Shown in pieces: positions 39,372 to 54,187 of a stretch of 54,791 nucleotides of DNA. Origin of the DNA: an uncultured Candidatus Saccharibacteria bacterium (GTDB lineage: Bacteria > Patescibacteriota > Minisyncoccia > Phycocordibacterales > UBA9973); contig CAZSWF010000003.1 in the NCBI GenBank assembly GCA_964610995.1, positions 1 to 54,791 of the forward strand, in the 5' to 3' direction. The position numbers and the translations under genes are program-made. The notes beneath the pieces were generated by a model. That model was not told the origin of the DNA. It made no database searches and was given only the letters and a program-made list of their open reading frames with translations. Position 1 is the first letter of the stretch. The number at the start of each line of letters is the position of its first letter.

Positions 39372-39557
39372 TTACCAAGAACTCTTGCGGATACCTGGGA
39401 TCATGCCGTCGTTGGCAAGCTCTCGGAAACAGATACGGCAGAGACCAAAGTCTCGCATGTATCCGTGTCGTCGACCACAGCGAAAACAGCGGTTCACCGC
39501 TCGAGTACTGTATTTAGGCGTCTTTTGGGAACGCGCGATAGTTGAGGTCTTTGCCAT
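39372..39557 (-). CDS. rpsN: 30S ribosomal protein S14, zinc-binding type Z
   Basis: 61 aa. [23 protein letters not shown] (CxxC...CxxC). Confidence 0.9.
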
Positions 39558-39654
39558 AGGTTCGGTCCCCCTTGGAATATCGCATGGATTTTTCTCTAAG
39601 CTTCCCCGAAAGGTTGCTCAGAGAGAAACTCATGGATTACCAAAGAGTCTGCAT

Positions 39655-39683
39655 ATCCTAGCAGATGGGAGCAGTCGTGTCAA
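39655..39683 (-). promoter_or_regulatory. Putative promoter TTGACA-17-TAGGAT upstream of rpsN
   Basis: Minus strand reads ttatTTGACAcgactgctcccatctgcTAGGATatg, immediately after the CPBP-gene terminator. Confidence 0.45.
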
Positions 39684-39712
39684 ATAAAAGGGACCGCAGC
39701 ATCTGCGATCCC
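39684..39712 (-). terminator. Intrinsic terminator after the CPBP-like gene, inside the spc cluster
   Basis: Minus strand reads GGGATCGCAG-atg-CTGCGGTCCC (one mismatch) followed by TTTTATTT. Confidence 0.7.
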
Positions 39713-39716
39713 TGTG

Positions 39717-40427
39717 TTACGCCCAAATAGGCGTAAATACTTTTACATAAATAACAAAGGCATTGAAAATACTGTGGGTCATCCACGCAAAAAGGTAGTT
39801 GGGCTGAAAATAGTACAGAGGTGTCACCACTGCACTAAAGACGAATGTCGCAGGGAGTACTACTTCGGGGTTGGAGAAAAATATGTGCGCTCCGGTAAAA
39901 AAGATAACAACAATACCACAGACTATCCCCCACCGATGTGGCGAGAAGATGTCTTTCATCTTTTTTATAAGATACGCACTAAAGAGAAACTGCTGCATCC
40001 CCGTACAAATAAGTACTGATACGAGAAATTTCCACGAAACCCCCTCTGAGGAAATAATACTTTCCCGAACGGGCACAAACTTATGTGCATATGCAAAACA
40101 TAGAGCACCAATGAATATCAACATGGAATAATACGGTAACCCTTTGGTGATGTTTTTCCAATGAAACCCGATCTCAACAAGTGACCATGTGTTGGTAATA
40201 ACTGCTCGTCGCACACCAAGCCCAATCGTACAAAATACGATCCCGAGAATAATAGGGTTGTACTGCACAGGAATGATTCCTACCCATAACAAGAGTACTG
40301 CGGTTGCTGGGAATGCGAAAACGCTCCCGAGCTTTTTCAATGTCTGTGTCGCTTCTAAAGGTACTTGTGTATACATATGATACTTTTTCTTTACTCTACT
40401 CTTGTCTGTAGAAAAATCAAATAACAA
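39717..40427 (-). CDS. CPBP (CAAX protease)-like intramembrane protein, motif 1 apparently degenerate
   Basis: Multi-TM. FFTGAHIF and MTHSIFNAF resemble CPBP motifs 2/3, but QQFLFSAYL sits where EExxxR is expected. Confidence 0.55.
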   Translation of the reverse strand: MLFDFSTDKSRVKKKYHMYTQVPLEATQTLKKLGSVFAFPATAVLLLWVGIIPVQYNPIILGIVFCTIGLGVRRAVITNTWSLVEIGFHWKNITKGLPYYSMLIFIGALCFAYAHKFVPVRESIISSEGVSWKFLVSVLICTGMQQFLFSAYLIKKMKDIFSPHRWGIVCGIVVIFFTGAHIFFSNPEVVLPATFVFSAVVTPLYYFQPNYLFAWMTHSIFNAFVIYVKVFTPIWA

Positions 40428-40450
40428 AACTCCCCACTAGTGTAGGGAGG
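40422..40450 (-). terminator. Hairpin plus T-run after rplE
   Basis: Minus strand reads CTCCC-tacactagtg-GGGAG followed by TTTTGTT. Confidence 0.45.
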
Positions 40451-40472
40451 ATTGTAGTAGTACGTCGATCTA

Positions 40473-41003
40473 TTATTTCTTGAACGGAATACCGAGATAC
40501 GTAAAGAATCGGAGGGCTTCATCACGGTCTTTTGCAGTAGAGACAAGCGTGATCGCAAATCCGAACACATCCTTGAGGTCTTCGTCAGATGTTTCTGGAA
40601 AAATGGTGTGTTCTTTGATACCGATGGTCATGTTGCCGATATTGTCGACAGCTTTAGGATCAATACCACGGAAGTCCTTGGTACGAGGAATCGCAATGTT
40701 GATGAGCTTGTCCACGAAGTGGAGCATGCGTGCACCACGGAGCGTCACCGCAACCCCGATCGGGTCGCCTTGGCGAACCTTGAAGCTTGCAACTGACTTT
40801 TTCGCAGAACGTACAGTCGGTCGCTGACCCGTGATACGAGTGAGACGGTCCATAATGACGTCGTTTTTCGTGCGATCTTTCTTCATACCAGAACCAGTAC
40901 CACTAGAGATAATAATCTTGGTCAGACGAGGTGCACCAAGGACACTTGAGTAGCCTGGAAGTACGGTATGTGTAGTATCTTGTTTTTGCTTGATGATTTC
41001 CAT
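40473..41003 (-). CDS. rplE: 50S ribosomal protein L5
   Basis: ITGQRPTVRSAKKSVASFKVRQGDPIGVAVTLRG...PRTKDFRG. Confidence 0.9.
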   Translation of the reverse strand: MEIIKQKQDTTHTVLPGYSSVLGAPRLTKIIISSGTGSGMKKDRTKNDVIMDRLTRITGQRPTVRSAKKSVASFKVRQGDPIGVAVTLRGARMLHFVDKLINIAIPRTKDFRGIDPKAVDNIGNMTIGIKEHTIFPETSDEDLKDVFGFAITLVSTAKDRDEALRFFTYLGIPFKK

Positions 41004-41013
41004 ATGAAAACTC

Positions 41014-41244
41014 TTATTTCTTTACTGCTTTCTTTTCAGTCAGCTTGAGGTTGGAATGATGAATCGACGCTTCTCGCTCTACAATAGAACCTTTTTCGGT
41101 CTTGCTTTTTGCACGAACGTGGATCTTTACTTTGTTGACGCCATCAACGATCGCTCGATCGCCGATAATACGTGCAACAGGACCCTTGGCACCTTTGTGC
41201 TTGCCGGTTATTACTATTACGTTGTCTCCTTTTTTGATATGCAT
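41014..41244 (-). CDS. rplX: 50S ribosomal protein L24 (short, 76 aa)
   Basis: MHIKKGDNVIVITGKHKGAKGPV (KOW motif). The upstream part of the track ORF overlaps rplN and is rejected. Confidence 0.85.
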   Translation of the reverse strand: MHIKKGDNVIVITGKHKGAKGPVARIIGDRAIVDGVNKVKIHVRAKSKTEKGSIVEREASIHHSNLKLTEKKAVKK

Positions 41245-41245
41245 A

Positions 41246-41617
41246 TTACAAAACCTCTGGTGCCAATGACACGATTTTCTGATAGCCGAGCTCACCAATC
41301 TCGCGAGGGATCGGGCCAAAGATACGACCAGCCTTTGGTTCTTTCTTTCCCTTTTCGATGAGGACAACTGCGTTGTCATCGAAACGAATGTATGAACCAT
41401 CTTTGCGGCGAAATGCGCTCTTTTGACGAACTACTACTGCGTAGAGTACATCCTTTTTCTTTACGGTCTTGCGAGGCTCTGCTACTTTGACTGAGATAAC
41501 TACGACATCACCAATACCAGCATAGCGGCGCTTACTCCCACCGAGGACCTTGAAGACCTTGCCGATCTTTCCTCCAGCGTTGTCAGTGATTTTTACGATT
41601 GTTCCATCTTGTACCAT
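41246..41617 (-). CDS. rplN: 50S ribosomal protein L14
   Basis: MVQDGTIVKITDNAGGK...IRFDDNAVVLI. Confidence 0.92.
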   Translation of the reverse strand: MVQDGTIVKITDNAGGKIGKVFKVLGGSKRRYAGIGDVVVISVKVAEPRKTVKKKDVLYAVVVRQKSAFRRKDGSYIRFDDNAVVLIEKGKKEPKAGRIFGPIPREIGELGYQKIVSLAPEVL

Positions 41618-41621
41618 ATAA

Positions 41622-41882
41622 TTAACTCTGTTGTACGTTATCCGCTACGACGACGAAGCGCTTGTCCTTGGACAGGGGTCGTGTCTCGCGCAGCTCTACT
41701 ACATCTCCGACCTTGTGACTGTTGTCTTCGTCATGCGCCTTGAACTTCTTGGTGATCTTGTAGTACTTTTTGTATTTAGGATGCTGCACAAAGCGCGTCA
41801 CTGCGACAACGATAGTTTTATCCATCTTGTCTGAGACGACGGTTCCTTTGAGTGTTTTGGTTGTATTGGTTTCTGGTTTCAT
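41622..41882 (-). CDS. rpsQ: 30S ribosomal protein S17
   Basis: [18 protein letters not shown]...HPKYKKY...HDEDN..KVGDVV. Confidence 0.9.
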
Positions 41883-41897
41883 ATAGTTATACTCGCG

Positions 41898-42314
41898 TTA
41901 TACTCTCTCGACGACGCGTGTTTTAAGTGGGAGCTTGGTTCCCGCCTTGCGCAATGCTTCTCGTGCGATGACTTCGGTAACACCATCTACTTCAAAGATG
42001 ATGCGTCCTGGGAGCACTTCCATGCAGTATCCATCGAGATCGCCCTTGCCTCCTCCCATGGGTACTTCGGCAGGCTTTGAGGTGATAGGACGGTCAGGAA
42101 ATACACGGATCCACATACGGCCAGTCTTGCCGAGGTGTCGAGATGCTGCCTTGCGGGCTGCTTCGATCTGGTTTGAGGTGATACGAGCGAGTGACTCAGT
42201 CTTGAGACCAAATGATCCAAAGCTGATGGTAGTACCACGTGTCTCTATACGACCTTCCATCTTGGTTCGTTTCTTTTGCCATTTTCTAAATTTTACCTTT
42301 TTTGGGAATAACAT
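41898..42314 (-). CDS. rplP: 50S ribosomal protein L16
   Basis: MLFPKKVKFRKWQKKR...MGGGKGD. Confidence 0.92.
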   Translation of the reverse strand: MLFPKKVKFRKWQKKRTKMEGRIETRGTTISFGSFGLKTESLARITSNQIEAARKAASRHLGKTGRMWIRVFPDRPITSKPAEVPMGGGKGDLDGYCMEVLPGRIIFEVDGVTEVIAREALRKAGTKLPLKTRVVERV

Positions 42315-42317
42315 ACA

Positions 42318-43001
42318 TTAACTCTTGGTCTGTCTACCATCTTGATCTTTGGCAAAGACTTGTCCTTTGTAAATCCAGACCTTAATACCGATCACACCGT
42401 ATGCGAGGTTTGCGCGCTCACGAGCAAAGTCGATGTCTGCACGAATAGTCTGAAGCGGAATAGATCCACGCTTGAGCTCTTCACTTCGTGAGATTTCAGC
42501 CCCTCCGAGTCGTCCTCCGAGATAAAACTTCACTCCTTGTACGCCGCGTACTGCCATCACCTTTTCGATGAGCTGCTTCATGACACGTCGGTATGGGAGA
42601 CGCTTTTCGAGGCCTTCTGCGATCATGTATGCGACGATCTTTGCGTCAGCATCAGGACTGGTGACTTCGACGATTTCGAGCCGGATATCGTCAGTGACCG
42701 TGAGCTTTGCTCGTTTGAGTGCAGTCTGTATGTCTGCCTTGAGTTTGGTCGCACCTTCACCAGATCGACCGATGATCATACCAGGGCGAGACGTGCGTAG
42801 TGCTACACGAATAGCTTTCTGACTTCGTTCGATTTCCACACTTGAGATGTATGATCCACGCAGACGCTTGTCGAGGTAGCCACGGATCGTGACGTCTACC
42901 TTGAGATTCTGAACGTAGTTTTTGTCAGTTGCAAACCAGCGGCTTTTCCAGTCGCGGAGTGTTACAAGACGGTGTGAATATGGGTGGACAACTTTAGACA
43001 T
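42318..43001 (-). CDS. rpsC: 30S ribosomal protein S3
   Basis: VHPYSHRLVTLRDWKSRWFA, KH domain GMIIGRSGEG. Confidence 0.92.
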   Translation of the reverse strand: MSKVVHPYSHRLVTLRDWKSRWFATDKNYVQNLKVDVTIRGYLDKRLRGSYISSVEIERSQKAIRVALRTSRPGMIIGRSGEGATKLKADIQTALKRAKLTVTDDIRLEIVEVTSPDADAKIVAYMIAEGLEKRLPYRRVMKQLIEKVMAVRGVQGVKFYLGGRLGGAEISRSEELKRGSIPLQTIRADIDFARERANLAYGVIGIKVWIYKGQVFAKDQDGRQTKS

Positions 43002-43006
43002 ATAGA

Positions 43007-43360
43007 TTATTTACTCTGCTTCTTAACCTTCTTGGGTGCAGCCTGCGCCAAGGTCACGGTCACATGACTGAGCCGTTTGTTGATCGGAGTTGCACGACCC
43101 ATCGCACGAGGCATAGAGCGCTTCATGACGAGGCCTTTGTTTACTTCTACGTTTTTAACTACAAGAGTCGAAACATCTGCACCTGCTACAACCGCATTGG
43201 CAGCGGCACTTTTGATAAGTTTCTGCATAGGGAGCGCACCACGCTTGACCATGTATGAGAGCGTAGTGTCTGCATCAGCAACACTCTTGCCTTTCACGGC
43301 ATTTGCCACAAGGCGGACCTTGCGAGGAGATTGTTTGTAGTTGGTGAGTGTGGCTTTCAT
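43007..43360 (-). CDS. rplV: 50S ribosomal protein L22
   Basis: YKQSPRKVRLVANAVKGKSV...GRATPINKRLSHVTV. Confidence 0.9.
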   Translation of the reverse strand: MKATLTNYKQSPRKVRLVANAVKGKSVADADTTLSYMVKRGALPMQKLIKSAAANAVVAGADVSTLVVKNVEVNKGLVMKRSMPRAMGRATPINKRLSHVTVTLAQAAPKKVKKQSK

Positions 43361-43411
43361 GGTTAATTTGGTGTAATTATTTCCCTGAGTTTAGTATAAA
43401 AATCTGAGAGG

Positions 43412-43759
43412 TTATTTTTTCTTGGCGTCAGCAGTTGTTGCCTTTGCGGACTTTGCTGCTGAGATTTCAGCTTCTTTTTTCTTTTGATCGATATCTTTCT
43501 GCATCTTACCACCGTGTCGAGTAAACTTGCGGGTGGGTGAAAACTCTCCCAAACGGTGCCCTACCATGTCTTCGGTCACGAGGACGTCGATGTGTTGCTT
43601 GCCGTTGTGTACGCCAAAGGTAAATCCGACCATTTGTGGAGCGATCTGACTTGCGCGAGCCCAGGTCTTGATGACGCCAGCTGACATAGGCGCTTTGCCC
43701 TCAATCTTCTTGAGGAGCTTTTCATCAATATACGGGCCTTTGGCGAGTGATCGTGTCAT
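43412..43759 (-). CDS. rpsS: 30S ribosomal protein S19 (Lys-rich C-terminal extension)
   Basis: [15 protein letters not shown]...[29 protein letters not shown]. Confidence 0.9.
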
Positions 43760-43778
43760 TTCGGTGGTTTCTTTGGTA

Positions 43779-43802
43779 GAAAAAAAGAAGCTCTTACGAG
43801 CT
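43779..43802 (-). terminator. Weak hairpin plus long T-run between the TA toxin and rpsS
   Basis: Minus strand reads AGCTC-gtaa-GAGCT followed by TCTTTTTTT. Confidence 0.35.
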
Positions 43803-43847
43803 GATGTATAGTAGCAAATTCTAAACCAATGTCAAATACCAGGCGCC

Positions 43848-44108
43848 CTATCGATAAATATCATGATCCCCTATGAAATAGAACGTTGCTTCAGAACCAT
43901 TCCTTTCAAATTCAAATACAATCCTATAGCTATAATCCACCGAAAAAGCCCACAAATCACGTAATTCACCATGGAGCTTATGTGTTTTAAGGCTTGTAGC
44001 AAAAGGATTTTTTAGAAAGACGGCTTCTTTCTTTTTTGCTTTGATCTGTATTGGTCGTGGTACTTTTCTGTACTCTCTTTTAAATCGTGCTGTATAAAAG
44101 ATTTCCAT
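43848..44108 (-). CDS. RelE/ParE-superfamily toxin
   Basis: 86 aa. ...KLHGELRDLWAFSVDYSYRIVFEF...YFIGDHDIY pattern. Lies 8 nt after the antitoxin gene. Confidence 0.75.
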   Translation of the reverse strand: MEIFYTARFKREYRKVPRPIQIKAKKKEAVFLKNPFATSLKTHKLHGELRDLWAFSVDYSYRIVFEFERNGSEATFYFIGDHDIYR

Positions 44109-44116
44109 ACAGCAAT

Positions 44117-44335
44117 CTATTTCAATAAATCGTCCAAGGAGTTCAGTCGGTACCGTTTTCCGGCCTTCGCATCTCGCTGACTTGCCTTGATCTCTCGGAT
44201 AATAGCCCGCTCTTTGAGCATACGTACTGCATCGCGCATAAATTCGCTTGTTGAGGTGTACATGCCACTCTCGACAATCTCGTCGATTTCTTTCTTGAGC
44301 GCAGGAGAAACGGATATAGACAATATTTGTCGCAT
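44117..44335 (-). CDS. Ribbon-helix-helix (CopG/ParD-like) antitoxin
   Basis: MRQILSISVSPALKKEIDEIVESGMYTSTSEFMRDAVR. Start refined (TGtTACAGT 6 nt upstream). Confidence 0.7.
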   Translation of the reverse strand: MRQILSISVSPALKKEIDEIVESGMYTSTSEFMRDAVRMLKERAIIREIKASQRDAKAGKRYRLNSLDDLLK

Positions 44336-44341
44336 AGAGCT

Positions 44342-44350
44342 ACTGTAACA
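44342..44350 (-). promoter_or_regulatory. Extended -10 TGtTACAGT, 6 nt before the antitoxin ATG (leaderless-type)
   Basis: Minus strand reads TGtTACAGTagctctATG. Confidence 0.4.
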
Positions 44351-44357
44351 CAATGTA

Positions 44358-44756
44358 TTACAGCAATACAAGGACCTTCGGTACAAATACGATCAGACCC
44401 ACGACTACTGCACCCACCACCGTCAGGAGTACCGCCCCTGCAGCCACATCCTTGGTGTCACGGGCATAGGGGTGGTAGGTAGGGCTCGTAAGATCTATAT
44501 CGATCTCGAGCGCAGTGTTGAAGCCCTCTGCGACCAGTACCGACGTGATCGCCAGCACAAGTACCGCCCACTCCCCTGGACTGATCTGTAGTACAAAGCC
44601 GAGCACTACTACTACCACTGCTGCAAGTGCATGCACCCACGCATTGTGCTGTGTCCGGAAAATGATCGCTATCCCCCGCAGCGCATGCCGGAAGCTCTGC
44701 GCCCGTGCAATGATAGAGAAGCGTTTCTTTTCGGACATGGGTGAAGGTGTGTTCAT
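44358..44756 (-). CDS. dgkA: Prokaryotic diacylglycerol/undecaprenol kinase family (DgkA-like) membrane protein
   Basis: FRHALRGIAIIFRTQHNAWVH, 3 TM, EGFNTALE, DTKDVAAGAVLL. Confidence 0.8.
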   Translation of the reverse strand: MNTPSPMSEKKRFSIIARAQSFRHALRGIAIIFRTQHNAWVHALAAVVVVVLGFVLQISPGEWAVLVLAITSVLVAEGFNTALEIDIDLTSPTYHPYARDTKDVAAGAVLLTVVGAVVVGLIVFVPKVLVLL

Positions 44757-44762
44757 AGAGGA

Positions 44763-44768
44763 AGTATA
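44763..44768 (-). promoter_or_regulatory. -10 TATACT, 6 nt before the dgkA ATG (leaderless-type)
   Basis: Minus strand reads cgaTATACTtcctctATG. Confidence 0.4.
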
Positions 44769-44785
44769 TCGTGCATTGAGACAAA

Positions 44786-44811
44786 TAAAAAAGCCCTCTC
44801 GATGTGAGAGG
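44786..44811 (-). terminator. Intrinsic terminator after the 141-aa gene
   Basis: Minus strand reads CCTCTC-acatc-GAGAGG, then gc and TTTTTTATTT. Confidence 0.65.
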
Positions 44812-44819
44812 ACTATTTC

Positions 44820-45245
44820 TTAGCCAAGGACAAGTTTTGCTTCTATTACTTGCCCGCGAACCGCATAGTGCCCAGTAATAGTCGCAAACCCGTCTAGTGC
44901 CCGTTCAATGGTTGCGAACATTATCTGCAGGCTTCCGTGATCTTTTGGTGTAACACTGTGTGCAGCCTTTCCGGTATTGAATGCAGAAAATATTATCTGC
45001 TTCGAATCTTTCAACCTATTGTGCTCATCAAAATTGGCTTTCACCAACCGATCGAAATCAAGGAATGCAAACTGTGGGAAAGAATGCGTAATCTGGGGAC
45101 ATTTTTTGGCTATCCTCTCCTTGAGAACTTTTACAATTTCACCAATGGAATTCTTATTTTTCCATTGAAATGTAGCACCGGTCCATAACATAGACGTAAC
45201 CGTGTCCATGAAAGGGCCTTTGTAAACTTGGGATGAATGGTTCAT
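44820..45245 (-). CDS. Hypothetical protein (141 aa), orphan cassette
   Basis: Clean ORF with its own promoter and terminator. No motif recognised. Confidence 0.55.
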   Translation of the reverse strand: MNHSSQVYKGPFMDTVTSMLWTGATFQWKNKNSIGEIVKVLKERIAKKCPQITHSFPQFAFLDFDRLVKANFDEHNRLKDSKQIIFSAFNTGKAAHSVTPKDHGSLQIMFATIERALDGFATITGHYAVRGQVIEAKLVLG

Positions 45246-45263
45246 GTTTTTTAAATTTGGGTG

Positions 45264-45292
45264 ATTTTATAGTGTTTGAGTTGGAATGTCAA
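45264..45292 (-). promoter_or_regulatory. Promoter TTGACA-17-TAAAAT fused to the upstream terminator T-run
   Basis: Minus strand reads ttttatttTTGACAttccaactcaaacactaTAAAATcac. Confidence 0.5.
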
Positions 45293-45321
45293 AAATAAAA
45301 AACCCTCCGATTAAGAGGGTT
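45291..45321 (-). terminator. Intrinsic terminator after the 117-aa gene
   Basis: Minus strand reads AACCCTC-ttaatcg-GAGGGTT followed by TTTTTATTTTT. Confidence 0.7.
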
Positions 45322-45417
45322 TGAGATGTCATTTTTTCTGAATGTTTTTATAGACCAGCATATTGCTCTCATGTGTCTCAAGCAGTCCCCTGAAAGCCCG
45401 GCGATGGTGTCGCCCTT

Positions 45418-45771
45418 CTACACCCGACAAAAAGTGATACTTTTCCAATAACTTTTGTATTCTTGCCACTGTATCTTTGCGATAGGTACTTTGCATCGAT
45501 ACAAAACAAATGATTCGTCGGACACGTTTCTCCGAGTAAACTTTTTTTTATGAAGTCGTGTCTCAACACATAGTATATTGGCAAGTTCTCCAGCAGAGTC
45601 ATCCGACAGTGCAAGAAGTACATCAAACAACTCTTTGTGTGTTGCGTTCATACATACTCCCACGACGTGTAGTAAAAACAATGGTTCTGAAGAGTACAAA
45701 AGATCAATAAGATCTGCATCAATCTGATCAATAGAAATGATGGAAGTCTGTTCGTTATATATCTTTTTCAT
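45418..45771 (-). CDS. Hypothetical protein (117 aa), orphan cassette
   Basis: Clean ORF with its own promoter and terminator. No motif recognised. Confidence 0.5.
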   Translation of the reverse strand: MKKIYNEQTSIISIDQIDADLIDLLYSSEPLFLLHVVGVCMNATHKELFDVLLALSDDSAGELANILCVETRLHKKKFTRRNVSDESFVLYRCKVPIAKIQWQEYKSYWKSITFCRV

Positions 45772-45787
45772 ATGTAGTTTTTTCTCG

Positions 45788-45815
45788 ATAGTACTCTTTT
45801 ATGAGGCGTTGTCAA
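45788..45815 (-). promoter_or_regulatory. Promoter TTGACA-16-TACTAT fused to the upstream terminator T-run
   Basis: Minus strand reads ttttttTTGACAacgcctcataaaagagTACTATcg. Confidence 0.5.
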
Positions 45816-45841
45816 AAAAAAGAACCGGTAAAAACCGGTTC
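45814..45841 (-). terminator. Intrinsic terminator after the helicase gene
   Basis: Minus strand reads GAACCGGT-tttt-ACCGGTTC followed by TTTTTTTT. Confidence 0.8.
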
Positions 45842-45852
45842 GATGTAAAGAA

Positions 45853-48800
45853 CTATATTTTCTTCTTTCTTGTATAAAGAACATTATTTAAACTATAAAG
45901 AACATCATCTCCGACTCCTTCCAACTTTAACTTTTTAGCAACCCTATAAAGAAACTCTTTATCAACCTTTCCTTTTTCGATAGCTAACACCTGGGCTATA
46001 AAACCAGCTCCTTTACCAAATTGCCCGAAAGACATAGCTTTGAAATCGGCGTTTGGTATATTAACCAGATCTTTATAACTCATTATTCCGTTCTTTTTAA
46101 GTTCTTCTGTATAAACAATATTCTTATCCTCATCTGAAGGCATCCATCCAAGCCATATTGCGAGTTCGTCCATAACAGAAAAAGTAATACGTTTAAATAT
46201 CTTATTCAGAGAGAAACGTAAAAACTTTGATGCTTTGCCTAATGAACCAAACTCCATACTTCTAAACTTTACTGGCCTTATTTTTTTTAACTCCCAATAA
46301 TTAAAGATACCGTAGTCAGCCAGTATTTTCTTAGCTAATTCTTTTTTACCTTCATCACTAGTTAGCCAGCCAAGTTTAGAGGATACTTGGTCTAAATCAA
46401 TATTATCAATTCGAATGCTGGTATTATGAGGAATATCAAGAATCCTACCAAGTAACATTACACCTGAACCAATTTCTCCGAACTTAGTCATACCGAGCTT
46501 TCTTTTTCCAAAGCCTATTAAGCTACTGTGATCAACAATGCCTCGTTTTGCAAGTAACTCTTTTAGGTAATCTATCTTAGACCACCCTAAATATTCTGCC
46601 GCCAATTCGAGTTTGCTTCTTGTTAGATTGGTAGCTGGCTCTTTAAGAATAATTGAGAAAAACTTCTGACCGTGACCAATGACGCCATATTTTAAAGCCT
46701 TCAATTTTAACATATCGTACTTTTTTAAGTCGCCGTAGCTTCGTATGTTATGTTTAGCTAGTTCTAAGAGGTAATGTTCTTTTTTCTGTTCCTCTGATAA
46801 TTCCCAACCTAGTATCGATGCAATTTTTTCATACAATACAACTGTATTCAAATCAAAGGATCTTGTATTAAGAATCGCACCAGCAAAGTTTTTGATTTTC
46901 TTAAAATCTCCAAACTCTACTTTTCCTAGCTGAAAAAGAGAAAACGAAACAAGACTCCAGTAATCGGTAATACCATGTTTTCTAAACTCTTCTTTGTATT
47001 TATTAATTCGTTCCTCTTCAGAGGGCATCCAATTGATTTTTTTAGCAACTTCATTAAGCGTATCGTAAGTAACAATAAATTTCTTATAATTCTTTTGTCC
47101 GATACGAACACCTAAATATCTACAAAAATAAATTGGGGAGCTAAAAACTCCAAAGTTTAACCTTGTAAATTTAAAAGTGCCAAATTTATAAACTAGATCC
47201 CAATAATCATTTATACCATTCAACTTTAACTGCTCCTTTGCCATTTCAATAAGGTTCCCCTTTTCTTTCATCAATTCATGCGACTTCACGCTTTTGTTTT
47301 CGATGAACTCAATACTTTTAACAGGAATCAGTTCTTTGAGATTAATTTGTTCAGGGCCATATACGCCTTGACCAAGGTAACCACGGATAAATCCTGCAAG
47401 TTCTTTTTCTTCATCAGTGAGACTTTCCCAGACTTTCTTCCAGGTTAATCCTTGCTTAAGGAGAGTGAATATTTTCATTTCAACTTCACGCTGTCCTGTA
47501 TACCCAGCAACAAGGCCGCCATTGAGATAAATATTTACCCCGAAAATTGAAAGAAGAGATCCGATCTCATGTCGTTCACTTTTAAATACACCATCAACCA
47601 CCAAGAGATCTTCCCCTGGAATGAAGCGGGTACCCCGACCAATTTCCTGGACTGATTTCCAAAGTGCTGAAACACTGTATGGGCGAAAACTCAAGATACC
47701 ATTAATTTCTGGAACATCTGCACCCTCACCAAGTTTTTCACTCGTGAACATGATAGTCGTCTCATTATTATGATATCGATCCATGCGACGATTGAATTCG
47801 GTCATCCCAATTTCACCACTGACATAATCAGCGATAAAGTTTACACCGTCTCCATGTTTTTCATCGATCAACTGCTTGAGTTCATTATTACAGAAGAATG
47901 ACAACTCCTCAGCAATTTTTATTCGATCAACGAATACTAACCATTTACGGTCAATTACTGATTTTGCGCCAACTGCAGTAAGTACCTCATTATCCTTAAC
48001 AAAAAGCTCTTCAAGAATTGCTTTCATTATAGGGATATTTTTAGCAACCACTTTTGCTGTTTGCTGTACCGGTAATTCTCTTGTCTGAGACTTTACAGAT
48101 GTTAGATCTATATATGTCCGAGCATTGATATACCGTACTGGCTTAAGTTCTCTGCGGTTTATGCACTCAAGGATACTTGCATGATATGCAAGACGTTCAT
48201 GATATGGAACAATTTCACCATTTTCTTCTTCGGGCTTGATAGCTTCAAAGAATATGAAAGGATTATTCCATCTCTGCCCTTTTGTTGTTGCAGAACCACC
48301 TACAAAAAATGCGGTATGCATTTTGTTTTCAAGGATAATACGAATACGATCAGTTACCCGATGCGATTCGTCACATACTACTAATCCAGCTTTTTTCTTA
48401 TACAGAATATCTACTGTCTTAGTTGTAAGACCTTGATAGCATGCCAGAGTTACCTTAGCATTTTTCTCAAACTCTTTTGACGATCCTGATCTACCCGCAA
48501 GAATTCTAATGTCATCATCAGAGAACATCGGAAGCCACATTTTTACATCTCCATATATCAACGGTTCATCGTCATCATCTTCTGATAACAATGCTGGCAA
48601 ACCAATCATTTGGTCTGCAATATTGATACGGGATGTAAACAGTGTAATTTCAAATTTCTCTTCGACACCAAATACTCGCAGTGTGTCATAGAAGGCACGA
48701 ATAATCGCACCCCAGATCATTGACTTACCTGCACCTGTTGGAATTTCTACCAAAGGGCGTGTAAACCAATGTTCAAAAGCTTTAATGATTGCTTGAAGCG

Positions 48801-49080
48801 CTTCACGCTGAGTTTGCCTCCATGGACGCTCTATACCATACTGTAGTGGATTGAGCGTTTTTTTGAGTTGAGTAATGAAGTAATCCCGAATTTTTTCAAC
48901 CTCCAATAAGGAGATCATGAAATTGCTGATATATTCATCTTGGTCAAGATTGGGAGAAAATTCTTGTTCTGCCCAATCTTTTCGATTCATACCTTCAGGC
49001 AGGGAGAACCCATTACCTAAAGCAATTCCAGTCAAGTTTTCTATAACCTGTACTGGTTTGTTTGCTAGTAAATTTTTCAT
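45853..49080 (-). CDS. SF2 (DEAD/DEAH, ResIII-like) helicase/translocase with six C-terminal ~74-aa tandem repeats of unknown family
   Basis: PTGAGKS (aa 114-120), CDESH (236-240), SAT (263-265), QEIGRGTR (478-485). Aa ~605-1055 is the repeat array. Very AT-rich. Confidence 0.85.
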   Translation of the reverse strand: MKNLLANKPVQVIENLTGIALGNGFSLPEGMNRKDWAEQEFSPNLDQDEYISNFMISLLEVEKIRDYFITQLKKTLNPLQYGIERPWRQTQREALQAIIKAFEHWFTRPLVEIPTGAGKSMIWGAIIRAFYDTLRVFGVEEKFEITLFTSRINIADQMIGLPALLSEDDDDEPLIYGDVKMWLPMFSDDDIRILAGRSGSSKEFEKNAKVTLACYQGLTTKTVDILYKKKAGLVVCDESHRVTDRIRIILENKMHTAFFVGGSATTKGQRWNNPFIFFEAIKPEEENGEIVPYHERLAYHASILECINRRELKPVRYINARTYIDLTSVKSQTRELPVQQTAKVVAKNIPIMKAILEELFVKDNEVLTAVGAKSVIDRKWLVFVDRIKIAEELSFFCNNELKQLIDEKHGDGVNFIADYVSGEIGMTEFNRRMDRYHNNETTIMFTSEKLGEGADVPEINGILSFRPYSVSALWKSVQEIGRGTRFIPGEDLLVVDGVFKSERHEIGSLLSIFGVNIYLNGGLVAGYTGQREVEMKIFTLLKQGLTWKKVWESLTDEEKELAGFIRGYLGQGVYGPEQINLKELIPVKSIEFIENKSVKSHELMKEKGNLIEMAKEQLKLNGINDYWDLVYKFGTFKFTRLNFGVFSSPIYFCRYLGVRIGQKNYKKFIVTYDTLNEVAKKINWMPSEEERINKYKEEFRKHGITDYWSLVSFSLFQLGKVEFGDFKKIKNFAGAILNTRSFDLNTVVLYEKIASILGWELSEEQKKEHYLLELAKHNIRSYGDLKKYDMLKLKALKYGVIGHGQKFFSIILKEPATNLTRSKLELAAEYLGWSKIDYLKELLAKRGIVDHSSLIGFGKRKLGMTKFGEIGSGVMLLGRILDIPHNTSIRIDNIDLDQVSSKLGWLTSDEGKKELAKKILADYGIFNYWELKKIRPVKFRSMEFGSLGKASKFLRFSLNKIFKRITFSVMDELAIWLGWMPSDEDKNIVYTEELKKNGIMSYKDLVNIPNADFKAMSFGQFGKGAGFIAQVLAIEKGKVDKEFLYRVAKKLKLEGVGDDVLYSLNNVLYTRKKKI
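45916..47268 (-). repeat. Coding tandem repeat array: six ~69-81-aa units
   Basis: Anchors are NGINDYWDL(621), HGITDYWSL(702), HNIRSYGDL(777), RGIVDHSSL(846), YGIFNYWEL(923), NGIMSYKDL(997). LGW/INW Trp residues fall at 684, 759, 833, 905 and 979. Confidence 0.8.
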
Positions 49081-49089
49081 TATGCAGGC

Positions 49090-49096
49090 CCTCCTT
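49090..49096 (-). promoter_or_regulatory. Canonical Shine-Dalgarno AAGGAGG, 9 nt before the helicase ATG
   Basis: Minus strand reads ggccAAGGAGGgcctgcataATG. The SD sits in the loop of a GGCC/GGCC mini-hairpin. I saw no comparably strong SD at the other gene starts I inspected by eye. Confidence 0.6.
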
Positions 49097-49135
49097 GGCC
49101 GTTTTTAAAGAGTTTTGTGAATATTATTTTTTATT

Positions 49136-49165
49136 TATATAACCATGAATATAGATATAAGTCAA
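49136..49165 (-). promoter_or_regulatory. Putative promoter TTGACT-18-TATATA for the helicase
   Basis: Minus strand reads atTTGACTtatatctatattcatggtTATATAaat, just after the rplB terminator. Confidence 0.4.
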
Positions 49166-49181
49166 TATCATTGCCTAATAC

Positions 49182-49207
49182 AAAAACCACCCATACGGGT
49201 GATTTTT
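49182..49207 (-). terminator. Intrinsic terminator directly after rplB
   Basis: Minus strand reads CACCC-gtat-GGGTG followed by GTTTTTG. Confidence 0.6.
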
Positions 49208-49213
49208 GAGAGA

Positions 49214-50050
49214 TTATTTCTTCCCAACTTTTCGTCTCGTGATGACGTCGTTGTTTGAGTATTTCTTGGGAGTACGAGTCTTGCGACCGCCGGTGACCTT
49301 GCCCCACAGTGTCTTGGGACGCTTGGTACCACGGCCTTGTACACCTTCACCACCACCGTATGGGTGATCGACAGGGTTCATGGCAGTACCTCGGACGGTA
49401 GGACGGATACCCTTCCATCGTGAGCGACCAGCCTTACCATAGCGAACGAGCTTGTTCTCGTCATTGGAAACTGTACCGAGTGTTGCCCAGCAGGTGTCCT
49501 GTACGCGTCTGATCTCGGTCGATGGCATCTTGAGCTGCGTGTAGCCGTCGTTTTGCGCAATAACCTGCGCAAATGAACCTGCTGATCGGACCATCTTTGC
49601 GCCAGCACCTGGCTTGATCTCAATGTTGTATACAAATGCACCACTAGGGATCGCTGCAAGTGGGAGGCGGTTGCCTTGCTCGATAGGAGCAGTCGCAGAA
49701 ACGGTGAACATGTCTCCTACTTTCACACCCTTGGGGAGTACGACGTAGCGCTTTTCACCATCACGGTAGATCGCAAGTCCAATAAATGCAGAACGGTTTG
49801 GGTCGTATTCGATCGAATCAATACGTGCGGGAATGTCATGCTTGTTGTACAAAAAGTCTACATCACGGTAGAGACGCTTGTTGCCTCCCCCTTTGTGACG
49901 AGTGGTGATACGACCCATGTTGTTGCGGCCCACGTGTCGCTTGCGACCCTTGGTCAATGCCTTGAGTGGAGTAGTGCGAGTCAACACCTTGCGATAGTCA
50001 ATCGTAAGTGTTTGTCTCTGTCCTGGTGATGTGGGTTTGCGTGATTTCAT
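49214..50050 (-). CDS. rplB: 50S ribosomal protein L2
   Basis: GRNNMGRITTRHKGGG...MNPVDHPYGGGEG. Confidence 0.93.
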   Translation of the reverse strand: MKSRKPTSPGQRQTLTIDYRKVLTRTTPLKALTKGRKRHVGRNNMGRITTRHKGGGNKRLYRDVDFLYNKHDIPARIDSIEYDPNRSAFIGLAIYRDGEKRYVVLPKGVKVGDMFTVSATAPIEQGNRLPLAAIPSGAFVYNIEIKPGAGAKMVRSAGSFAQVIAQNDGYTQLKMPSTEIRRVQDTCWATLGTVSNDENKLVRYGKAGRSRWKGIRPTVRGTAMNPVDHPYGGGEGVQGRGTKRPKTLWGKVTGGRKTRTPKKYSNNDVITRRKVGKK

Positions 50051-50074
50051 AAAATTCTTGTTATCTGTGCATTA

Positions 50075-50398
50075 TTACATGATGTCTATTTTGACACCCT
50101 TGGCGACGGTGACGTACGCTTTCTTGGACTTGCGGGCAACCCCGAGCACTCCCTTGCGCCAAAATGTCTTGGGTTTGACATTTACGGTGTGCACCTTGAG
50201 TGGCTTGTGTTTGTATTGTGCGAAAAATGCTTTTGCGATTTCGTTTTTGGTCATGCCAAATACGACGTCAAAGGTGTACGTGTTCATACTACCGAGCTTT
50301 GCAGCCTTTTCGGTGATGCGAGGTTTGCGAATGACACTGATGGGAGTCTTCACTTCTTGCTCGGTCTTGAGTTGTGTTGTTTTGGTAGCCATATACAA
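50075..50398 (-). CDS. rplW: 50S ribosomal protein L23
   Basis: IRKPRITEKAAKL...YTFDV....K.EI. Sits between rplD and rplB. Confidence 0.85.
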   Translation of the reverse strand: MYMATKTTQLKTEQEVKTPISVIRKPRITEKAAKLGSMNTYTFDVVFGMTKNEIAKAFFAQYKHKPLKVHTVNVKPKTFWRKGVLGVARKSKKAYVTVAKGVKIDIM

Positions 50399-50401
50399 AT
50401 A

Positions 50402-51103
50402 TTATTTCATCTTTGACTCAAGTGTTGGCACTATCTGAGCCGGGTCGACCATGACAATGTGGCGATAGCCCAAAAGCATTGTCGGGTTGAGCTCAAGTGC
50501 AGTCGTGATAGTCACTCCTGGAAGGTTCGCGAAGCTCTTGGTGACGGTGTCTTGGAGAGCTGGGACTACAATGAGAGCGTTGGTGCGCTTTTCTGAGTCG
50601 ATCGCTGCAAAGCCGTCAGCTTTTGCAAATGCCTTGAGTACGAGGTCTGCATCCTTGGTCTTGATCGCAGGGAGTGAGAGCGTATCTACAAAGAGCATGC
50701 TGCCCATCGCATACTTGCGTGAGAGTACGGTGTAGAGTGCTTTGACGCGAGATTTCTTGTTGATCTTTTTTGAGTAGTCTTTGTCATTGCGAGGACCAAA
50801 AGTGATACCTCCACCTGTCCAGATCGGACTACGGTTGGAACCGTGTCGAGCCTGACCAGTACCTTTTTGCTTCCATGGCTTCTTGCCACCACCAGAAACT
50901 TCTGAACGGTCCTTGGTATGTGCAGTACCTGCCCGCTTGTTTGCGGCCATACTCGTGATCACTTGGTGAACGAGGTCTGCGTTCCATGGTGCGCCAAATA
51001 CCTTCTCAGAGAGAGTAATAGTCCCCGCTTTTGCACCCTTTTGCGAGTAGAGTGTTGCTTCGAGAGATACTGCCTTTTTGGTTGTTTGTTTTGATGTAGC
51101 CAT
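50402..51103 (-). CDS. rplD: 50S ribosomal protein L4
   Basis: RAGTAHTKDRSEVSGGGKKPWKQKGTGQARHGSNRSPIWTGGG. Confidence 0.92.
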   Translation of the reverse strand: MATSKQTTKKAVSLEATLYSQKGAKAGTITLSEKVFGAPWNADLVHQVITSMAANKRAGTAHTKDRSEVSGGGKKPWKQKGTGQARHGSNRSPIWTGGGITFGPRNDKDYSKKINKKSRVKALYTVLSRKYAMGSMLFVDTLSLPAIKTKDADLVLKAFAKADGFAAIDSEKRTNALIVVPALQDTVTKSFANLPGVTITTALELNPTMLLGYRHIVMVDPAQIVPTLESKMK

Positions 51104-51114
51104 ATAAATACTCG

Positions 51115-51729
51115 TTATGCGGTCGCACTTACGATGCGTACAAGAGAGCCTCGTCGACCAGGGACAGCTCCGCCAATAAAGATAGTATCTCCTTCTACTG
51201 CCACAACCTTGAGACCTTTGACAGTCACAGTGTCTCCACCGGTGCGTCCTGCCATGCGCATACCCTTGACCACGCGGCCTCCAGCGCGACCTGGTCCTCC
51301 ACCGATCGATCCTGCTTCGCGTTCAGAGTGTTTCTGACCGTGAGATCGAGGACCGCCATGGAAACCATGTCGCTTGACCACACCTTGGAAGCCTTTTGAC
51401 TTTGATGTGCCGGTGACGATCACGTCATCTCCTGCAGCAAATGCGTCTGCTGACATAGTGTCACCTGACGCTACTACTGGGTTGTCAGTACGAAACTCTT
51501 GTACTACCTTGTATGCCTTGCCTCCGAGAGAACCTATTTCTGCCTTGGTGCGGCGTGACTCTTTTTGATCTCCGGTTGCTACTTGTACAGCACTATAGCC
51601 ATCGCTTTCGATAGTCTTGATCCGGGTGACAGTGTTTTGCTCCACCTTGATAGCGGTCACAGGATATACCACGCCTTTGTCGTCAAAGCGCTGGGTCATA
51701 TTGATTTTTGTGCCGATGATAAATTTCAT
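51115..51729 (-). CDS. rplC: 50S ribosomal protein L3
   Basis: GTKINMTQRFD...GTSKSKGFQGVVKRHGF.GG..SHG. Confidence 0.92.
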   Translation of the reverse strand: MKFIIGTKINMTQRFDDKGVVYPVTAIKVEQNTVTRIKTIESDGYSAVQVATGDQKESRRTKAEIGSLGGKAYKVVQEFRTDNPVVASGDTMSADAFAAGDDVIVTGTSKSKGFQGVVKRHGFHGGPRSHGQKHSEREAGSIGGGPGRAGGRVVKGMRMAGRTGGDTVTVKGLKVVAVEGDTIFIGGAVPGRRGSLVRIVSATA

Positions 51730-51803
51730 ATGTTCTTGCCTGCCACCTGGGCGGGTATTGGACCATTTTTACAAACGTTAGCTACGTTTTAATTGGTAGG
51801 AGG

Positions 51804-51831
51804 ATTATACACGCATTGTTATTTTATGCAA
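51804..51831 (-). promoter_or_regulatory. Promoter TTGCAT-16-TATAAT upstream of rplC
   Basis: Minus strand reads cTTGCATaaaataacaatgcgtgTATAATcc, about 70 nt before the rplC ATG. Confidence 0.55.
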
Positions 51832-52001
51832 GAGGGTGTTATGCTCTACATAACGGAGTAGGAAATGAGCACCTACTTACTGGTTTACCAGCCGGCTTTA
51901 GGGCTTAGTGTTCATGTAGAACATCAACAAAATAGACGATTTTGTTCTTTTACCCAATCAAAACTTAGTATTTTAGTACATGATGTTAAGAACATTCACC
52001 A

Positions 52002-52038: not shown

Positions 52039-52464
52039 TTATCGAGATATTGAAGGAATAGGAGCAACTGGTATTTTATCGTAAATACATTTTGGAGTGA
52101 ATAATAATCCAGATCCATAACCAGTAGGTTGAGGTGCGACATATTTTGCGTATTCTGCATTAAAGAATGCTCGGGTCAGTGGCCCAACAAATCCTGTACT
52201 ACTAATACTATTGTCTGCTTGTAGTTTCTTTACTGCTCCAAAGGTGACCGACCCAAAGTATCCAGTGAGTTGTGTTTGAGTAGAAATATACCCATGTGAC
52301 TGAAGATATTCTTGGAGAAACTGAACATCGGGATCACAAAGACCGCGAGAAAGATTTTTATTTAATGGTCTATTTGGATATGGCGCTCCTGCCGCTAATA
52401 CACCAAAAGTGCCGAACGCGAATGATGTAAGTAAGGTTATTATAATTATTTTTTTCATACACAT
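52039..52464 (-). CDS. Secreted peptidoglycan-binding (PG_binding_1-like) domain protein
   Basis: Signal peptide KKIIIITLLTSFAFGTFGVLA. DVQFLQEYLQSHGYI...GYFGSVTFGAVKKLQ...GFVGPLT. Confidence 0.7.
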   Translation of the reverse strand: MCMKKIIIITLLTSFAFGTFGVLAAGAPYPNRPLNKNLSRGLCDPDVQFLQEYLQSHGYISTQTQLTGYFGSVTFGAVKKLQADNSISSTGFVGPLTRAFFNAEYAKYVAPQPTGYGSGLLFTPKCIYDKIPVAPIPSISR

Positions 52465-52505
52465 AAAGAATATATCATTTTTTTATTTTATCAAAAATAT
52501 ATAGC

Positions 52506-52526
52506 AAAAACTCCCCTTTCGGGGAG
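52506..52526 (-). terminator. Intrinsic terminator directly after rpsJ
   Basis: Minus strand reads CTCCCC-gaaa-GGGGAG followed by TTTTTG. Confidence 0.7.
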
Positions 52527-52555
52527 TGTTTGCTGAGTATGTTCTTTTGGTGAAC

Positions 52556-52996: not shown

Positions 52997-54187
52997 TTAC
53001 GCAATAATCTTGGTTACAACACCAGCACCGACTGTGCGGCCACCTTCACGGATCGCAAAGCGCATCTGGTCTTCCATCGCTACTGGTACGACCAGCTTCA
53101 CGACGATTTTGACAGTGTCTCCTGGCATGACCATTTCGGTACCTGCAGGGAGGGTTACTTCACCGGTTACGTCAGTTGTACGGATGTAGAACTGAGGCTT
53201 GTAGCCGTTGACAAATGGAGTGTGTCGTCCACCTTCTTCCTTCTTGAGGACGTAGACTTCACCTTCAAACTCGGTGTGAGGCTTCACAGAACCGCTCTTG
53301 CAGAGCACCTGACCACGAGTGAGATCTTCTTTCTTTGCACCTCGGAGGAGAATACCTGCGTTGTCGCCGGCCATACCTTCTTGGAGGTTTTTGTTAAACA
53401 TTTCGATACCGGTCACTGTTGTTTTTGCAGTGTCTTTGATACCGACGATTTCGATTTCTTCACCGACTTTCACTGTTCCACGTTCGATACGACCAGTGAC
53501 CACAGTACCTCGGCCTTCGATAGAAAAGATGTCTTCGATCGGCATAAGGAATGGTTTGTCGATTTCACGTTCTGGAAGTGGGATGTAGGTGTCGAGTGCG
53601 TTGGTGAGTTCGAGAACCTTTTGTGCCCACGGATCATCAATAGATGTTGATTCGAGTGCCTTGAGTCCTGATCCACGGATCACTGGACAATCCTTGTCAA
53701 AGCCTTGTTTTGCAAGGATTTCACGGATTTCTTCTTCGACGAGGTCGATCATGTCTTTGTCGTCAACCATGTCGCACTTGTTGAGGAACACAATGATTTT
53801 TGGCACACCAACTTGCTTCGCAAGAAGGATGTGTTCACGGGTCTGTGGCATCGCACCATCGGTCGCTGCAACCACGATGATTGCACCGTCCATCTGCGCT
53901 GCACCAGTGATCATGTTCTTGATGTAGTCAGCGTGACCTGGCGCATCGATGTGCGCATAGTGACGAGTTGCTGTTTCGTACTCGTTGTGGGAAATGTTGA
54001 TCGTAATACCACGAGCTTTTTCTTCGGGTGCGCCGTCAATGTCGCCGACTCCCTTGAGCTTCACGGTGTTTCCTGCCATGTTCAACACATGAAGGATTGC
54101 TGCAGTAAGCGTCGTCTTACCATGGTCAACGTGACCGATAGTACCGACGTTTACGTGCGGCTTATCTCGCTTAAATTCTCCTGCCAT
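52997..54187 (-). CDS. tuf: Elongation factor Tu
   Basis: [31 protein letters not shown]. Start refined to [11 protein letters not shown]. Confidence 0.95.

Follow-up and report, generated by a model that had tools for sequence, protein, structure and literature searches.

In the genome of an uncultured Candidatus Saccharibacteria bacterium (assembly GCA_964610995.1, contig CAZSWF010000003.1, positions 1-54,791, hereafter the window), the S10-spc array of ribosomal protein genes is interrupted between rplB and rpsS by a block of six other genes. We consider it likely that this rplB|rpsS junction is an ancestral boundary between separately signalled ribosomal modules, and that the block is layered cargo in a gene-exchange slot rather than a fresh disruption. 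This view is built on the gene order, the signals and their conservation, and the pattern of gene presence and absence among relatives, all of them directly observed, from which we infer the activity of the promoters and terminators and the route of DNA insertion. A previous sequence-only reading of this DNA had described the block as splitting the S10 operon, a description that is not supported, since the break, the rplB terminator and the rpsS promoter with its leader hairpin are common to most of 60-plus Paceibacteria genomes.

The array lies throughout on the minus strand, to which all coordinates of its genes and signals below refer. It starts with tuf, rpsJ, a gene for a 141-aa peptidoglycan-binding protein, rplC, rplD, rplW and rplB, continues after an interval of 5454 bp with rpsS, rplV, rpsC, rplP, rpsQ, rplN, rplX and rplE, and then, after a gene for a CAAX/Rce1-like membrane protein, with rpsN, rpsH, rplF, rplR, rpsE, rplO and secY. 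The rplB gene (ribosomal protein L2, 49214-50050; Pfam Ribosomal_L2_N 3e-31, Ribosomal_L2_C 5e-49) is the last of the module rplC-rplD-rplW-rplB, and rpsS (S19, 43412-43759; Ribosomal_S19 4.5e-32) the first of the module rpsS-rplV-rpsC-rplP-rpsQ-rplN-rplX-rplE, with 43760-49213 as the exact spacer between them. The coordinates and the six-gene list of the earlier reading were right, as checked by open reading frames (ORFs), Pfam and PHROG: a superfamily 2 (SF2) helicase, orf117, orf141, dgkA, a ribbon-helix-helix (RHH) antitoxin and a RelE-like toxin. The adjacency of rplB and rpsS is one of the most conserved gene pairs of prokaryotes and is often presupposed in marker-gene and in synteny work; in Escherichia coli K-12 the spacer is 16 bp. 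A canonical S10 operon has these two genes contiguous (tens of bp or less apart), a single promoter with leader at its head and no internal signals, while the window has 5454 bp between them, predicted terminators 3′ of rpsJ and rplB, and predicted promoters 5′ of rplC and rpsS. The GC content, 0.45 on average over the window, falls sharply within the block.

The break itself is widespread among relatives. The window belongs to the Parcubacteria/Paceibacteria group of the Patescibacteria (candidate phyla radiation), ultra-small bacteria, and its best RplB matches come from metagenome-assembled genomes with labels such as Nomurabacteria, Paceibacterota and Kaiserbacteria. We retrieved 80 loci in which RplB is 60-90% identical and placed 20 cluster genes in them by tblastn. 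In the 63 loci that contain both genes, the median distance between rplB and rpsS is 1012 bp; the gap exceeds 300 bp in 51 and 2 kb in 16, and reaches 8097 bp at most, so that the premise of the earlier reading, adjacency of the two genes in essentially all bacteria, fails in this lineage. Two other junctions are loose as well: the median rplE-rpsH gap is 961 bp, only ~190 bp of which are accounted for by rpsN, and the rpsJ-rplC gap exceeds 300 bp in 11/63 loci. The remaining junctions are tight, with five or fewer gaps above 300 bp each.

What fills the rplB|rpsS gap differs from genome to genome. Upon clustering, 133 of the 177 gap ORFs were singletons, and the recurring Pfam families were DAGK_prokar (12), DUF3298 (7), OMPdecase (4), a mechanosensitive-channel domain (4), PemK (3) and L10/L12 (3 and 2); pur/pyr genes also occur. 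In some relatives (L070, L074, L078 and L079) the gap holds genes with ribosomal L10 and L7/L12 domains together with an OMP-decarboxylase gene. An antisense ORF of at least 100 aa lies in the gap of 24/63 relatives (35 of the 112 ORFs of this size are antisense), and co-transcription through the gap is therefore ruled out there.

The sequence-only reading had found no convincing promoter for rpsS, only a weak TTGACA-19-TATACA, and had left open how the distal half of the operon is transcribed. That weak match was a mis-parse of a near-consensus promoter (43808-43835) conserved in relatives, which consists of a −35 TTGACA at 43835-43830, a 16-nt spacer and a −10 TACTAT at 43813-43808 (10/12 consensus positions), with a TGc motif 5′ of the −10 (43816-43808 together with it). 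At the level of sequence the answer would thus be that rpsS has a conserved promoter of its own. It is followed by a leader hairpin, AGCUC-GUAA-GAGCU at 43802-43789, and a U-rich run at 43788-43780 (together −6.8 kcal/mol, z = −3.1); the hairpin begins at about +1 of the predicted transcript, and the rpsS ATG is at 43759.

The same arrangement recurs among relatives. Of 64 rpsS upstream regions examined, 55 have a promoter-like match, and the conserved order is TTGAC(A/T), 16-18 nt, (TTTGC)TAnTAT, a GC hairpin with a stem of 4 bp or more, and a T-rich run. The hairpin and T-run stand behind the promoter in 53/55 regions, compared with 2.1 ± 1.3 expected when the downstream 50 nt are shuffled, and in 48 of these 53 the stem starts 5-9 nt past the −10, at about +1 of the transcript; the rpsS ATG follows a median of 16 nt further on, with no Shine-Dalgarno sequence. 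In pairwise comparison with L001, L002 and L091, DNA homology picks up again at or just inside the rpsS promoter (43823-43836), regardless of what lies upstream.

A covariance model built from these leaders was run over both strands of 1.1 Mb and found 79 matches. All of them have the orientation of the ribosomal genes and lie no more than 250 nt upstream of rpsS (53, the window included), tuf (19), rpsN (6) or rplC (1). In the model-fitted alignment, which took the place of a plain MAFFT alignment and is biased towards the structure, two-sided changes occur at all seven pairs, and the covariation is 0.365, compared with 0.156 after shuffling (0/500) and at most 0.143 with slid partners; in the plain MAFFT alignment it is weak (0.172 versus 0.122) because of register shifts. 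Within subclades the stem sequences are kept far more than neutral spacer would be. No Rfam family matched the whole window at the gathering threshold, or 43300-44000, where the rpsS leader lies, at E up to 10. The hairpin may act as a 5′ stabiliser, a read-through insulator or a weak attenuator: its phasing at +1 fits a 5′-terminal stabilising stem-loop, while its terminator-like form fits an insulator against read-through from the cargo, or a weak attenuator.

The other side of the boundary is closed by a terminator-like hairpin 3′ of rplB (49208-49181), made of an A-tract, the stem-loop CACCC-GUAU-GGGUG and a U-tract (−16.1 kcal/mol, z = −4.3), which bears out the intrinsic terminator noted before directly after rplB. 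A hairpin of this kind with a T-run is found within 90 nt of the rplB stop in 48/72 loci. The same scan gave 25/49 for rplE, 17/63 for rpsJ and 12% for rplO, and otherwise 5% or less for internal genes.

Within the block, dgkA is the oldest layer, an old family-level resident of the slot and not an insertion peculiar to the window, because 12 of the fetched relatives (13 genomes with the window) hold it in the slot and the identity of their DgkA to that of the window follows RplB identity. The product matches DAGK_prokar over its full length (profile 1-102 of 102; 112.5 bits against a cut-off of 22.3; 9.7e-33), and the gene, with a GC content of 0.554, has a leaderless layout (44358-44768 in all): a −10 TATACT at 44768-44763, 6 nt, and the ATG at 44756. 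In most of these relatives dgkA stands directly behind a terminator hairpin (that of rplB, where the two genes adjoin), and its ATG mostly has a −10-like hexamer, typically TGTATACT or TGTATAAT, ahead of it at a distance of ~6 nt; in the window TATACT-6-ATG is kept at 44768-44754. The leaderless layout pointed out for dgkA by the earlier reading is thus real, recurring upstream of dgkA in relatives and at other gene starts of the window. Indeed, TATACT (or TACTAT) with 6-7 nt before the ATG is seen at the starts of long ORFs, adk among them, at 2120, 6888, 12216, 14673, 26740, 29549, 35752 and 44756, which suggests that leaderless mRNAs may be widespread in this genome.

Between dgkA and the rpsS promoter lies a predicted type II toxin-antitoxin pair (43848-44335), an RHH antitoxin (72 aa, 44117-44335) and a RelE-like toxin (86 aa, 43848-44108), adjacent and co-oriented, antitoxin first, with an 8-nt spacer. 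The antitoxin matches RHH_1 (2.7e-07; 30.7 bits versus a cut-off of 20.5) and the ParD-family TIGR02606 (2.6e-10). The toxin matches the PHROG RelE-like toxin (1.7e-07), its matches to HigB-like, YafQ, ParE_like and TIGR02385 being all under their cut-offs. The GC content is 0.466 for RHH and 0.349 for RelE, so the statement that dgkA and the toxin-antitoxin pair are GC-richer is incorrect for the AT-rich RelE. In the closest genome, L091 (GCA_964432275.1; DgkA 94% and ribosomal DNA 84-92% identical), the order is rplB, 58 bp, dgkA, RHH, an 87-aa toxin and rpsS, with neither the helicase nor orf117 nor orf141. Its toxin-antitoxin pair occupies the same position and is homologous to that of the window, at only 36% and 51% identity; such high divergence next to a 94%-identical DgkA suggests that toxin-antitoxin alleles may have been replaced within the same slot.

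The segment 44769-49195, in which the helicase, orf117 and orf141 lie together with signals of their own, is the most recent layer. In the alignment to L091 homology ends at 49196 and restarts at 44768, with 4427 bp in the window against 27 nt there, and the junction falls within the 3′ half of the rplB terminator. Like a mobile element or island, the segment is missing from the closest genome and deviates in composition (GC 0.37-0.43 against ~0.5; 0.365, 0.37 and 0.425 for its genes compared with ~0.5 in the flanks). The block thus comprises at least three layers of different age, because L092 and L093 (DgkA 81% identical, found by a DgkA search) have rplB-dgkA-rpsS, L091 adds the RHH-toxin pair, and the window adds the helicase, orf117 and orf141. 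The sequence-only reading had called the block a mosaic of unequal origin, partly a recent accessory acquisition, and both the GC content and the presence/absence pattern support this. It had also named a test that would refute it, a block ancestral in relatives: the break and dgkA are indeed ancestral, whereas the helicase/orf117/orf141 segment is missing from the closest genome.

The SF2 helicase (1075 aa, 45853-49080) has a predicted N-terminal ResIII/Helicase_C motor and, from about residue 600, about six C-terminal repeats of ~77 aa each. ResIII is matched above its cut-off (53.5 bits, 3.5e-14), Helicase_C below it (21.2 versus 23.5 bits, 3.6e-04), and PHROG 16, a DNA helicase, at 3e-25. 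A putative promoter, TTGACT-18-TATATA at 49136-49165, was read from the sequence; it is a weak match and is not conserved elsewhere. A GGAGG Shine-Dalgarno sequence stands at 49094-49090, 9 nt upstream of the ATG, in contrast to the ribosomal genes, which have none. Only fourteen other homologues of the helicase were found, and the four with fetched contexts (P0002, P0004, P0007 and P0008) lie in unrelated places in other candidate phyla radiation genomes; neither a conserved three-gene cassette nor a ribosomal location, both of which we had considered, was seen in these four contexts. One of the homologues has a serine recombinase and an OLD-family nuclease in its neighbourhood. A sequence search of solved structures with the helicase found no relative, and neither did scans of viral contigs with the helicase and orf141. 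A reading of the helicase and its neighbours as a defence system was rejected, since PADLOC gave only marginal partial matches (DinG at 21 bits over 37 residues; Cas6b and Csm3 at E ~0.006-0.008).

The helicase gene is followed by a predicted terminator (45822-45841; 8-bp stem, 5 GC pairs, T8), the T-run of which reaches into the −35 of orf117. Reading of ORFs and signals gives for orf117 (45418-45815) a promoter TTGACA-16-TACTAT at 45815-45788, a coding sequence at 45418-45771 and a terminator at 45322-45300, and for orf141 (44792-45292) a promoter TTGACA-17-TAAAAT at 45292-45264, a coding sequence at 44820-45245 and a terminator at 44814-44792. It is these three distal genes alone that have terminators of their own, and not every inserted gene as had been stated; from dgkA through RHH and RelE no terminator is seen until the leader hairpin of rpsS. 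At 45822-45815, 45300-45292 and 54741-54737, all in AT-rich accessory genes, the T-run of a terminator merges into the −35 of the next gene (TTTTTTGACA), a compact fusion of terminator and promoter. Searches of Pfam, PHROGs, PADLOC and NCBIfam gave no family for orf117, Pfam at E up to 10 gave nothing meaningful for orf117, orf141 or the C-terminal repeats of the helicase, and neither orf117 nor orf141 had a tblastn match in any fetched locus. That orf141 is an orphan was borne out, as among 1.84 billion representative proteins nothing came up but orf141 itself and one weak match.

From these data we propose the following mechanism. The S10-spc array would be a chain of separately terminated and promoted modules, namely tuf-rpsJ, rplC-rplB, rpsS-rplE and rpsN onward. 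At the junction studied here, rplB would close with a strong intrinsic terminator and rpsS would open with a near-consensus sigma-70-type promoter plus TG motif, leading into the short GC hairpin and U-rich run at about +1 and then into a short leader lacking a Shine-Dalgarno sequence. With both flanks self-sufficient in transcription, inserted DNA would exert no polar effect on the ribosomal genes, and for this reason the spacer could have become a slot for gene gain, loss and replacement. The first layer would be dgkA, whose expression would be driven by a leaderless −10 promoter adjoining the rplB terminator; the second the RHH/RelE-type pair between dgkA and the rpsS promoter, of which the closest genome carries a very divergent allele; and the last the 4.4-kb AT-rich segment, each gene with its own promoter and terminator, which would have entered the 3′ half of the rplB terminator. 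All three module boundaries are occupied in the window, by the peptidoglycan-binding gene, the six-gene block and the CAAX protease gene.

Several alternatives need to be weighed against an ancestral boundary with layered cargo. One is that the six genes came as one recent mobile or accessory insertion into an intact S10 operon, leaving rpsS-rplE with no proper promoter. The AT-rich helicase/orf117/orf141 segment missing from L091, and the 16 bp between rplB and rpsS in a model bacterium such as E. coli K-12, would agree with it; however, the break, the terminator and the rpsS promoter are older than the block and common to most relatives, L091 has dgkA and the toxin-antitoxin pair with no helicase, which points to at least three layers instead of one element, and no integrase, transposase or flanking repeats were found, so that we regard a single insertion as very unlikely. 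Scarcely more probable is a functional tie between the slot genes and the ribosomal modules, such as co-regulation of dgkA or the helicase with translation genes, or a role of the helicase in ribosome or RNA metabolism, by which the position would be selected and not just tolerated. The presence of dgkA in the slot of 13 genomes, the window included, and of rplJ-rplL, truD or nucleotide-synthesis genes in the gap of some relatives speaks for such a tie, but the contents are overwhelmingly non-recurrent, with 35/112 of the larger ORFs antisense, the four helicase homologues with fetched contexts sit in unrelated places, and every gene carries signals of its own, with terminators that would insulate it. 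Somewhat less improbable, although still unlikely, is that the leader hairpin and U-run are merely the terminator of the upstream gene and play no role in rpsS expression: the hairpin is terminator-like, and the window, L001 and L002 have no other terminator between the upstream gene and rpsS. The stem, though, is phased 5-9 nt after the −10 in 48/53 cases and would thus be the 5′ end of the rpsS mRNA, it is found also where the terminator of rplB itself is the next element upstream, a like-phased arrangement stands before tuf and rpsN, and the conservation of the stem within subclades is well above the neutral-spacer expectation.

An assembly artefact, with the contig chimeric at the block borders, has a next to negligible chance. 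The metagenomic source, the sharp GC drop in the block and one mosaic contig (L089, see below) might raise such a suspicion, but relatives have comparable rplB-rpsS gaps, and the contiguity, which the sequence-only reading had proposed to confirm with reads, holds in independent Logan contigs, the block borders being reproduced in assemblies from four sequencing runs. Two other runs gave L081 and L082, which match the window at 100% over 49361-44576 and 49361-45588, respectively, and cover the rplB end, the helicase, orf117, orf141 and the dgkA start; a third gave L088, whose 99.8% match (44690-43463) leads from dgkA across RHH and RelE as far as rpsS. The Logan contig L089 (1-1094) equals L091 exactly in its first 150 nt (the 3′ arm of the rplB terminator, TATACT and the dgkA start), while the remainder matches the window at 98.75% and L091 at just 78%. 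This mosaic could be a recombinant haplotype that lacks the helicase or else a chimera of short reads, and in view of the latter we did not accept it as proof of a helicase-free strain of the same species.

Some observations weigh against the ancestral boundary with layered cargo that we prefer. The leader hairpin with its U-run resembles a weak terminator (−6.8 kcal/mol) and, if efficient, would oppose rpsS expression, and the activity of all promoters and terminators is a prediction. In 12/63 relatives the gap is 300 bp or less, so the boundary needs no cargo. The 80 sampled relatives are the best RplB matches and all Parcubacteria/Paceibacteria; they are mostly metagenome-assembled genomes, and their gap ORFs were called mechanically. 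Signs of an insertion mechanism were looked for and not found: Pfam, PHROGs, PADLOC and NCBIfam showed no integrase, transposase or recombinase among the six block proteins, a direct-repeat search for att-like flanks gave only short low-identity matches consistent with chance, and no tRNA gene lies within 20 kb of the block. A bolder extension, which we hold only tentatively and think rather doubtful as a whole, is that the S10-spc array has been re-cut at rpsJ|rplC, rplB|rpsS and rplE|rpsN across Paceibacteria (possibly the wider Patescibacteria), that the cassette at the head of each new unit (consensus promoter, 5′-terminal hairpin, U-run and a short leader lacking a Shine-Dalgarno sequence) is an undescribed cis-regulatory family which insulates the modules and controls their expression by attenuation or stabilisation, and that this insulation makes the spaces between modules preferred landing pads for new genes.

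Features of this arrangement are known from other systems. Integration hotspots flanked by core genes are a general concept of bacterial genome organisation, and the slot resembles them in its fixed site between conserved genes, variable cargo, recent material of deviant composition and a toxin-antitoxin pair; it differs in its flanks, which are ribosomal protein genes, in the housekeeping genes that some relatives carry as cargo, and in that the searches turned up no integrase, tRNA or att repeats. The S10 operon of E. coli has an L4-controlled leader attenuator of ~170 nt preceding rpsJ. In both cases a hairpin and U-run lie shortly upstream of the first ribosomal gene of a unit, whereas the element in the window is ~23 nt long, starts at about +1, precedes rpsS, has similar counterparts before tuf and rpsN, and has no Rfam match. 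The 5′-terminal stem-loops that stabilise bacterial mRNAs, such as the ompA leader, also share with it a short hairpin a few nt from the predicted 5′ end of a highly expressed mRNA; here, however, that end is a prediction, and the U-run behind the hairpin makes it terminator-like.

As for inserted genes, a 2019 study (PMC6735719) describes unrelated small gene sets between otherwise strictly ordered translation operons, with bfd-bfr separating str from S10 and tusDCB separating rpoBC from str, and an nrdHEF insertion inside the rpoBC operon. The window agrees with these cases in having unrelated genes between translation units with the flanking order kept. Those insertions, nrdHEF excepted, lie at classical operon borders, whereas those of the window lie inside S10 (rplB|rpsS, rpsJ|rplC) and spc (rplE|rpsN), and here one point carries differing cargo in most genomes of a class-level lineage. 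A literature search returned no description of the rplB|rpsS split or of these leaders in Patescibacteria, which is not proof of novelty; the lineage-wide modularisation and the promoter-hairpin cassette look undescribed, yet they also look like an extension of known phenomena.

One study notes that ribosomal protein genes and tuf are over-represented in the genomic islands predicted for Patescibacteria (PMC12455944), and the modular array may account for the ribosomal genes in these islands. More generally, a core ribosomal array can be modularised once each part carries its own signals. The rplB|rpsS slot offers a concrete, easily located site for the study of gene gain and loss in unculturable organisms, and binning and annotation pipelines should not read such gaps as misassemblies. 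The promoter-hairpin cassette, in turn, could serve as the first expression signal of Paceibacteria that can be put to an experimental test.

Two other boundaries are occupied in the window. At rpsJ|rplC (52039-52527) the rpsJ terminator (52527-52510) is followed by the gene for the 141-aa PG_binding_1 protein (52039-52464; 8.5e-12; GC 0.38), which has a signal-like N-terminus and lies behind the terminator. Since L091 has only 22 nt here, against ~690 bp in the window, this gene is a second recent insertion at a module boundary. At rplE|rpsN (39372-40449) a terminator (40449-40430), the gene for the CAAX/Rce1-like protein (39717-40427), a promoter (39683-39655) and rpsN (39372-39557) follow each other. 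The rpsN promoter reads TTGACA-17-TAGGAT and precedes a ~97-nt leader, and rpsN encodes a 61-aa zinc-type S14; the CAAX/Rce1-like gene is missing in L001 and present only as fragments in L091. L092 and L093 have a gene for a ~1400-aa surface protein 3′ of rplE, followed in L092 (14138-20396) by genes for type IV secretion system coupling proteins, so that the array is broken there.

Upstream of tuf (54185-54297) a TTGACA-17-TATCAT promoter, a long hairpin (−18.6 kcal/mol) and a T-rich run form a design like that of rpsS, and the tuf hairpin of relatives has a conserved sequence of its own, AACTGCA...TGCAGTT. The ribosomal genes of 37000-52000 have no Shine-Dalgarno sequences, and most of them start 2-6 nt past the preceding stop (TAAnnATG-type coupling). 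The canonical S10 complement is incomplete, as rpmC (L29) was not found: the rplP-rpsQ spacer has 15 nt (41882-41898), and no L29-like sequence occurs in the window. Among relatives, loss of rpmC mostly matches the clade with dgkA in the slot (gaps of 9-87 nt versus ~240 nt elsewhere), yet L033, L035 and L092 have dgkA and keep an L29-sized gap, with L29 annotated in L092. The rpmD gene (L30) is likewise missing between rpsE and rplO (37485-37489).

Elsewhere in the window, AT-rich stretches with a GC content of 0.32-0.37 at 1-4000 and 19000-20500 (window mean 0.45) may be other recently acquired segments. ARAGORN predicts a tRNA-Ile with the anticodon TAT at 23259-23332 and a tRNA-Ser with the anticodon ACT at 4419-4504, both anticodons being uncommon in bacteria.

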